Positions 3,001-6,000 of a stretch of DNA of 64,000 nucleotides are shown here, one piece after another; position 1 is the first letter of the stretch; every line of letters starts with the position of its first letter. The position numbers are program-made. The stretch is taken from the IMG/VR virus record IMGVR_UViG_2897352509_000011; one strand, written 5' to 3'. This DNA is from a virus (taxonomy: Duplodnaviria; Heunggongvirae; Uroviricota; Caudoviricetes).

Positions 3001-6000
3001 ATTAAACGCGCCCTGTACCACAATGCCGCTGCCGTGGTACTGGCACACAATCACCCGTCCGGTGAAGTCACACCCAGTAAGGCAGACCGGCTTATCACCG
3101 AACGTCTGGTACAGGCACTGGGCCTGGTGGATATCCGGGTGCCGGACCATCTGATAGTCGGTGGCAACCAGGTTTTCTCCTTTGCCGAACATGGTCTGCT
3201 TTAACCCTTCACAACCACATCACACCTGTTTTCACTTTTATCTTCTGTCTTCAGAGGTATCCCATTATGAAAATTATCACCCGTGGTGAAGCCATGCGTA
3301 TTCACCAACAACATCCGACATCCCGTCTTTTTCCGTTCTGTACCGGTAAATACCGCTGGCACGGCAGTGCTGAAGCGTATACCGGTCGTGAAGTGCAGGA
3401 TATTCCCGGTGTGCTGGCCGTGTTTGCTGAACGCCGTAAGGACAGTTTTGGCCCGTATGTCCGGCTGATGAGCGTCACTCTGAACTGAGTCAGTAAGGGC
3501 ATTCTGATGAGCAGAATTATCGCCATTACCGGACCGTTCTTAACCGATTTTCTGTGAGGACTTTATCGTGTCAGACACACTCTCCGGGACAACTCATCCC
3601 GATGACAACAACAGCCACCCCTGGTGGGGGCTGCCCTGCACCGTGACGCCCTGTTTCGGGGCACGTCTGGTGCAGGAGGGTAACCGGTTGCATTACCTTG
3701 CCGACCGCGCCGGTATCAGAGGCCTGTTCAGCGATGCAGATGCGTACCACCTGGACCAGGCCTTTCCGCTGCTGATGAAACAACTGGAACTCATGCTCAC
3801 CAGCGGTGAACTGAATCCCCGCCATCAGCATACCGTCACGCTGTATGCAAAAGGGCTGACCTGCAAAGCCGATACCCTCAGCAGTTGTGGTTACGTTTAT
3901 CTGGCTGTTTATCCGACGCCCGAAATGAAAAATTAACTCTCCAGAATAGCCTTCTGCTACGGCCTGGTGTTTTCACCACGCCACTTTTCCATTTTTATAT
4001 CTGCATATCAGGAAAATCTTCAGTATGAAAACATTACCTGTATTACCCGGGCAGGCGGCCAGTTCTCGCCCGTCTCCTGTTGAAATCTGGCAGATACTGC
4101 TGTCCCGACTGCTGGACCAGCACTATGGCCTCACACTGAATGACACACCTTTTGCCGATGAACGTGTGATTGAGCAGCATATTGAGGCAGGCATTTCACT
4201 GTGTGATGCGGTGAACTTTCTCGTGGAAAAATACGCGCTGGTGCTACCGACCAGCCGGGATTCAGCGCCTGTACCCGCTCTCAGTTAATAAACAGCATCG
4301 ATATCCTCCGGGCTCGCAGGGCGACCGGCCTGATGACCCGCGACAATTACAGAACGGTAAATAACATTACCCTGGGTAAGTATCCGGAGGCGAAATGATG
4401 ACACTGGAAGCCGACAGCGTTAACGTACAGGCGCTGGATATGGGGCACATTGTCGTTGACATTGATGGTGTTAATATCACTGAACTGATTAATAAGGCCG
4501 CTGAAAACGGTTATTCACTCCGCGTGGTGGATGACCGTGACTCTACCGAAACACCGGCAACTTATGCCAGCCCTCACCAGTTGCTGTAAGACAATGCAGT
4601 GATGCAGGGTATAGTGCCATTAACCACAGAAACAGCACTGTTGTCCTGTATTAAGCAGGCAAGAGAAGATGTCCTTACCCTGCGCCATCTGCAGCTTCTG
4701 CACCAGAACCGGTGAATCTCACTCAACAGGCTTCATTTCCCCTGACGCCAGCCTGAATACAGCTGGCGTTTTCATTTATAAACAGAAAGGAAAACCGATA
4801 ATAATGGAATGGACGCCCCGACCATGAAGCAACGGTAGGATATTACTGATAAACCTTCCAGTGGAGGTGCGTTATGGCCGTTTTAACGATTAGCATTGAC
4901 CTGACAAAAAATGAATTCCAAATCCACGGTCTGGGTAGGAACAGAAAAATCTAAGCTCAGAAAACGGATTAAAGTAAGCGTCAACGGAGCACCGTATTGA
5001 CGCTTATTTATTGGTGAGAACTACGTTCCATGGCAGGAGTTCGTCAACACGGTTGGAGGGCCATTCCGGCAGTATGCTCAGAATATGGCGCAGATACGCT
5101 TCCGGATCGATACCGTTCAGACGGCAGGTGCCTGCTTTTCCGGCAACAAGCAGGAATCTCAGCGCTGAAGCAGGAATTAGAGGTAAAAACGCCCTACCGG
5201 GCCATGAATCACCCGGTCATTGGAGTAGTAACCAAAGCAGATTTAGTCAGCATGGAACAAATATCTTTGGTGAAATGTTGGTTACGGGAAGCTGGAGCGC
5301 ACAACGTGTTAGTAACCAGTGCGGTTAATAACAATGGAGTTACAGAACTTTTTGCCTTGCTGCATACAGAAGAAGGCTGCCGCTAATTTCGATAGGTTCT
5401 CAGATGAGAATGATGACGGTGATACACAGATAAGAATCAATGAGCAATGAGGGTTGCCGGGCAACCCTCATTGAATAAAACAGGAATTACTTCGCTTCGC
5501 CGTTTTTCATTTCGCCCATAGCTTTCAGCTTTTTGGAGATATCGCGGCGTTCTTTGGAGAGCTCGGCATTTTTGATGATGTAATCGTCAACGCGATCTTC
5601 ATAGTCACCTTTCATGCTGGCGATGATGCCCTGGATTGCTTCAACGCTCATCCCTGGCTTGATGTAATCGCTCAGGTTGTCCAGCAACAGGACGCGCTTC
5701 TGGTTGTCACGGATCTTTTTCTCAACGTCCTGAATTTCACGTTGCAGTTTGTTCTTACGACGGAACAGACGAACAAATTCCAGTACGTCCTGGAATGAAG
5801 GCTTGGTAGTTTCCATTTTTATACCCCTGATAATGTGAGAGTCGGATTCGTTTAAGCAACCGCTATTCGATAGGGCCAACATTACTCATAGCTGCCGCAG
5901 ATGACAATGCTTTTATCCCTTTTCACTATCATACCCTTTATCCTTGCTGAATCGAAGCAGCAGCAAGATGATTCTGAAGTTCAGGAATTATTTGCGCAAG

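Follow-up and report, generated by a model that had tools for sequence, protein, structure and literature searches.

The window analyzed here, a stretch of 64,000 nucleotides from the virus record IMGVR_UViG_2897352509_000011 (Caudoviricetes), carries a cbeA-cbtA (yeeU-yeeV) gene pair, which raises the question of whether this locus encodes a working type IV toxin–antitoxin (TA) module. The original prediction, made from the sequence alone, described an intact antitoxin next to a toxin gene broken after codon 73, consistent with toxin inactivation in a decaying island. We consider it very likely that cbtA is a loss-of-function allele residing in a CP4-44-type, integrase-less island, that cbeA has thereby been orphaned, and that the allele is a common polymorphism spread by recombination.

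A one-base deletion in cbtA downstream of an uninterrupted cbeA

The type IV antitoxin gene cbeA (yeeU) occupies positions 3568–3936 on the + strand, starts with GTG, ends with TAA and runs through 122 codons without interruption in the ORF list. A CbeA_antitoxin (PF06154) match spans the whole gene (E 4e-53, profile positions 1–100 of 101), so that the domain is full length within one uninterrupted ORF, and the 369-nt gene is likewise annotated by PGAP at equivalent loci in other strains. The antitoxin had been predicted to be intact, and it is. The toxin gene follows directly on this strand, in a P4-like island with yeeS/yeeT/yeeW-type neighbors, and the two genes are separated by an 88-nt spacer (3937–4024, + strand) that holds the cbtA ribosome-binding region; the corresponding K-12 spacer has 88 bases as well (PMC5371832). 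Inside the spacer, a consensus scan alone returned a weak terminator-like hairpin at 3965–3983, followed by a T-rich tract. Such a hairpin could lower transcription of the toxin relative to that of the antitoxin.

The cbtA (yeeV) gene covers 4025–4398 (+ strand) and measures 374 nt instead of 375, as alignment and tblastn agree and as PGAP records with the label “frameshifted” at two comparison loci (L002 and L003). When the region is aligned with its intact counterpart in strain ZYB62, the one difference is the missing G (GTGC[G]TACC), all else being identical over 1022 bases. The lesion falls between 4244 and 4245 (+ strand), where codon 74 has changed from CGT to CT. Its immediate context is GCGCTGGTGC on the left and TACCGACCAGC on the right, the missing G being flanked by C and T rather than lying in a homopolymer. 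At the lesion, the deletion allele reads GTGCTACC, compared with GTGCGTACC when the G is present.

What can still be translated from the cbtA start is a stub of 87 aa (4025–4288, + strand; ORF list, Pfam and tblastn), composed of native codons 1–73 (4025–4243) and 14 out-of-frame codons that encode a Pro/Ser-rich tail, closed by TAA at 4286–4288. The C-terminal part, codons 75–124 plus TGA, is stranded in the −1 frame at 4246–4398 (+ strand; Pfam and tblastn). Both halves remain recognizable: the stub matches CbtA_toxin (PF06755) at positions 1–73 of 112 (E 1e-37), and 4246–4398, translated in its own frame, matches positions 75–112 (E 3e-13). No single reading frame thus contains the full-length domain, which is split into positions 1–73 and 75–112. 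The 124-aa intact CbtA aligns by tblastn with its residues 1–73 at 4025–4243 and its residues 75–124 at 4246–4395, both at 100% identity, which places the break exactly after codon 73. As intact orthologs were compared directly, chance is no concern for this frameshift. The predicted break, with the remainder in another frame, therefore stands on the ORF list, Pfam, tblastn and the ZYB62 alignment, and the comparison with intact yeeV alleles that had been proposed as a check yields the one missing G and nothing else over 1022 bases. The locus combines an indel that is not a multiple of three with a premature stop, the same lesion recurs across independent assemblies, and no recoding signal was found. 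No second copy or paralog of cbtA or cbeA was detected by tblastn within the 64-kb window, and NCBIfam returned no matches for CbeA, the 87-aa stub or YeeW.

A frameshifted cbtA is already known in this well-studied module. PGAP marks the gene as frameshifted, with the same 374 nt, in O157:H7 TW14359 (ECSP_RS13900) and in strain 720632 (CXX37_RS00775), RefSeq pseudogenes that share the single-G deletion, the island and the flanks with the window and differ from it only in a patch at the cbeA 5′ end (9–10 substitutions) and by ~1% divergence of the flanks. A literature search found nothing specific on a frameshift or pseudogene of yeeV. The appropriate annotation is an orphan cbeA with a cbtA pseudogene, not a working TA module, and TA censuses that count Pfam matches on the 87-aa ORF will over-count toxins.

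Population distribution and exchange of the deletion allele

The distribution of the lesion was determined among 5426 complete E. coli genomes by exact matches only, using an 80-mer of the window sequence centered on the deletion and its intact 81-mer counterpart. The deletion 80-mer occurs in 1486 of these genomes (~27%) and the intact 81-mer in 1776. Genomes with the deletion come from diverse backgrounds, among them O157:H7, O55:H7, O103:H2, O111:H8, O104:H4, O145 and E. coli C, and a scan with one genome per species recovered the same deletion allele in the same island in Shigella flexneri SFBU0723. At least 1000 public contigs carry a called product identical to the 87-aa stub, which some depositors named YeeV-YeeU toxin. 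Over 3568–4589, the window is matched at 100% identity by four draft assemblies, one of which, GCA_000460275.1, is 99.9% identical over 7.9 kb; the read-level check proposed for the frameshift is thereby largely superfluous. At the deletion-allele loci that we examined, no second disabling mutation is present. The cbtA deletion is inherited, being neither recent nor strain-specific.

Intact and deleted alleles are otherwise hard to tell apart. At four loci (L001, L005, L007 and L011), the only departure from the window across these 1022 bases is the presence of the G, and at one of these (L007) the upstream island genes also follow the order seen in the window. The right flank behaves differently: across tmaR-yeeA-sbmC (window 4590–7900), strains whose TA segments are identical apart from the G differ by 24–54 substitutions per 3.3 kb, a comparison in which haplotypes with and without the deletion are interspersed with each other. 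Judged by these substitution counts, the 1-kb TA segment appears to be much younger, or much more homogenized, than its surroundings.

Apart from the G, the sole other variation in the TA segment among these loci is confined to the initial 50 bases of cbeA, where nine substitutions within 35 bases (3583–3617, cbeA codons 6–17) separate two allele types. The window and ZYB62 carry one type; O157:H7 and strain 720632 carry the other, which is also that of L002 and L003 and which we take to be K-12-like. Each type occurs with intact and with deleted cbtA, which identifies the segment as a recombination patch. The one-base deletion recurs at a further locus, L009 (4001–4926; CP116411.1), where the 5′ end of cbtA is divergent and the island is of another kind: an Ag43-type autotransporter lies upstream, and a DUF5983 gene of 159 aa lies downstream. 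This suggests gene conversion between paralogous islands. Taken as a sequence pattern, these observations point to a single old cbtA deletion that has been shuffled among lineages and paralogous islands by recombination and gene conversion, a picture that fits the pervasive mosaicism published for these prophages (PMC5371832). The locus is in this respect a mildly useful example of TA decay and spread in mosaic P4-like islands, with one presumptive null allele reaching ~27% of genomes and extending across phylogroups and into Shigella, on a TA segment without differences between strains that diverge by ~1% in their flanks.

Predicted activity of the truncated toxin and of the orphan antitoxin

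In K-12, CbtA binds independently to FtsZ, at the H6/H7 loop, and to MreB, at the protofilament interface, and thereby stops both division and elongation, giving lemon-shaped cells; F65S abolishes the contact with FtsZ and R15C that with MreB (PMC5624674). The stub lacks the last 51 residues, 41% of this single-domain protein of 124 aa, and keeps 73 of the 112 Pfam match states. A search of the PDB by sequence returned no solved CbtA structure. For intact CbtA, single-sequence modeling with AlphaFold, at low to modest confidence (mean pLDDT 66), places helices at residues 18–34, 46–55, 59–70, 85–100 and 106–113; at this confidence, the break would fall within the loop formed by residues 71–84 and would remove helices 85–100 and 106–113. 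The three helices nearest the N terminus are predicted best. This placement of loop and helices agrees with a published CbtA model, in which T75–T84 form the H5–H6 loop and L88, I89, N113 and K119 contact MreB in the docked complex (PMC8828653). The residues lost and the modeled helices lead us to regard the stub as probably non-functional or strongly attenuated; with its last 51 residues gone, the 87-aa product would most likely be unstable or non-toxic. The predicted toxin inactivation thus stands in so far as the frame is broken by a one-base deletion, and the inactivation itself follows, conditionally, from the 51 missing residues.

Among the alternatives, the one that fares best is that the truncated product, CbtA(1–73) followed by 14 residues, is selected and functional, either as an attenuated or FtsZ/MreB-selective binder, for instance one that weakly inhibits division, or as a decoy against paralogous full-length toxins, in which case its high frequency would be due to selection and not to drift and hitch-hiking. 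We regard it as unlikely. R15 and F65, the genetically defined contacts with MreB and FtsZ (PMC5624674), both lie inside the retained part, which leaves room for residual activity, and the retained helices are the three best predicted in the model. The allele is moreover carried by about 27% of complete genomes, with no second disabling mutation at the loci examined. C-terminal truncations of YeeV are said to elongate cells still, as the 2011 abstract of Tan and colleagues reportedly states. Against a functional stub stands the loss of 41% of a single-domain protein, two helices included, and recent recombinational spread explains the missing secondary mutations equally well, as the intact and deleted alleles are otherwise identical. 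Variants of the stub protein, including D40N, I24T/S27T and A12T/P18T, are present in many contigs, and PGAP treats the gene as a pseudogene. If the stub were functional after all, this would explain why about a quarter of E. coli genomes carry it and why it was copied into a second type of island; an active stub would also define a minimal FtsZ/MreB-binding fragment of CbtA.

Recoding, in which full-length toxin would be supplied at a low level by transcriptional slippage or a −1 ribosomal frameshift ahead of the TAA, is less probable still, and we give it very little credence. The two frames overlap over approximately 4206–4288, a region that includes a run of five A's (4227–4231; GAA AAA T), and a −1 slip at this run would yield a 124-aa protein in which YALVR is replaced by IRAGA. 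Intact orthologs carry the same run, which is therefore no adaptation to the deletion, and such a slip would require the P-site GAA to re-pair with GGA. Five A's are also too few for efficient transcriptional slippage. A canonical slippery heptamer (X XXY YYZ) does not occur in frame anywhere in the overlap region of cbtA, which counts against recoding, as it does against a programmed −1 frameshift, for which the two-frame arrangement would moreover be expected to be conserved and is instead derived and polymorphic. Rfam identified no cis-regulatory element within 3000–5000.

A sequencing or assembly error that masks an intact cbtA in this strain is equally improbable. Single-base indels are the commonest kind of assembly error, and intact alleles that are otherwise identical do exist (L001, L005, L007 and L011). 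The identical deletion is nevertheless present in the 1486 complete genomes, which derive from many technologies, and it recurs in the four independent drafts that are 100% identical to the window over the 1022 bases, one of them 99.9% identical over 7.9 kb; the usual indel artifact is unlikely in any case, because the missing G sits between C and T and not in a homopolymer. A split toxin, with the C-terminal half expressed separately, was considered and rejected, since that frame offers no usable start codon: no ATG, GTG or TTG yields 30 aa or more, and its sole internal Met would give 21 aa.

We therefore return to the reading of a loss-of-function cbtA beside an orphaned cbeA. CbeA leaves the toxin itself unbound and instead bundles FtsZ and MreB, with its protection extending to unrelated inhibitors (PMC5624674, citing Masuda 2012), and because its targets are FtsZ and MreB and not the toxin, it could persist as an orphan. 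The three CbeA-family antitoxins of K-12 neutralize each other's toxins, and CbeA neutralizes YpjF (PMC5371832). By analogy with these K-12 experiments, the untouched cbeA may be kept as an orphan antitoxin acting as a general stabilizer of the cytoskeleton, and its product may cross-neutralize toxins of the CbtA family that paralogous loci elsewhere in the genome encode. YagB of CP4-6 in K-12 has been proposed as a possible orphan antitoxin of the CbeA family, and as with cbeA in the window, an antitoxin is kept there with no functional toxin next to it (PMC5371832); yagB, however, has no CbtA-like neighbor, whereas the toxin gene of the window remains as a nearly complete pseudogene. The pairs ykfI/yafW and ypjF/yfjZ belong to the same two Pfam families and to P4-like islands as well, and their antitoxins cross-neutralize (PMC5371832), but in K-12 they have 20-nt spacers and intact toxins, unlike the pair described here.

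The surrounding island and the downstream Shiga toxin prophage

The span of the original prediction, 3568–4589, also takes in yeeW, a gene that it did not mention. yeeW (4395–4589, + strand; ORF list and Pfam) encodes 64 aa with only the N-terminal DUF5983 domain (DUF5983_N), and its relative at L009 is full length, with 159 aa and both domains; although its ORF is intact, yeeW is thus probably itself a remnant. Its ATG (4395) overlaps the original cbtA stop (ATGA), and a GGAGG motif lies at 4386–4390, 4–9 nt upstream of the ATG. Because of this former overlap, translational coupling of yeeW to cbtA would have been lost with the frameshift, and yeeW, which keeps its own Shine-Dalgarno sequence, would now depend on this GGAGG.

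Upstream of cbeA, and all on the + strand, lie a DUF932 gene (1331–2152), an antirestriction gene (2234–2713), yeeS/RadC-JAB (2728–3204) and yeeT/DUF987 (3267–3488), each supported by Pfam and by PGAP at equivalent loci. This same-orientation run from DUF932 to yeeW is typical of the P4-like cryptic islands of E. coli. The window opens with two conserved hypothetical genes (1–684, 227 aa; 700–1110, 136 aa), which encode proteins with N-terminal hydrophobic leaders and lack a significant match in Pfam; O157:H7 and several draft genomes have both genes as well, placed after a patatin-like gene, and in O157:H7 RdcB-like genes are likewise found upstream. A yoeF-like remnant (5204–5386, + strand), which represents the last third of a EutP/PduV protein (PduV-EutP profile positions 88–142 of 143), stands at the island's right edge, shortly ahead of tmaR/yeeX, yeeA, sbmC and dacD. 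Between yeeW and tmaR, PGAP marks fragments of DUF957 and of a transposase at the equivalent loci of other strains, and the island of O157:H7 has IS elements and partial genes on its left side. The K-12 counterpart, CP4-44, has no integrase (PMC5371832). To speak of a decaying island is fair given the yeeW, EutP/PduV, DUF957 and transposase fragments together with the IS elements and partial genes, and the missing K-12 integrase is in line with it.

The closest known system is the cbeA-cbtA (yeeU-yeeV) pair of K-12 CP4-44, which shares with the window the order yeeS-yeeT-cbeA-cbtA-yeeW, the 88-nt spacer and the adjoining genes yeeX/tmaR, yeeA, sbmC and dacD. Residues 1–73 and 75–124 of the window's CbtA are 100% identical to the 124-aa CBTA_ECOLI. 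K-12-like genomes carry the intact 81-mer, whereas the window lacks the G of codon 74, and the cbeA 5′ end of the window is set apart from the L002/L003-type allele by the 9 substitutions at 3583–3617. The regions upstream of the TA pair differ as well: the window has the two hypothetical genes followed by DUF932 and the antirestriction gene, unlike K-12, where the layout is presumably flu-yeeR. An Ag43 context of the K-12 kind is the one seen at L009.

The more notable content of the window is the Stx2 prophage beyond dacD and not cbtA. Directly after dacD, at approximately 10000–62000 on the − strand, lies a lambdoid prophage that carries the genes for the A and B subunits of Shiga toxin 2, stx2B at 42528–42797 and stx2A at 42809–~43768 (both − strand). 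The stx genes follow a phage tRNA trio, Met(cat)/Arg(tcg)/Arg(tct), at 43861–44104 (− strand), and an ORF of 663 aa at 39727–41718 is nanS-p-like. The B subunit carries a motif that we take to be of the Stx2c/2d type. The complete genomes closest to window positions 1–12000 are stx2c-positive O157:H7, at an identity of only 99.2%. Rfam matches within the prophage, at 42242–42453, 47686–47769, 48714–48903, 57734–57792 and 60296–60412, involve the families STnc100, sRNA-Xcc1, C4 antisense RNA, isrK, the lambda cIII thermoregulator and the IS3-family ALIL pseudoknot.
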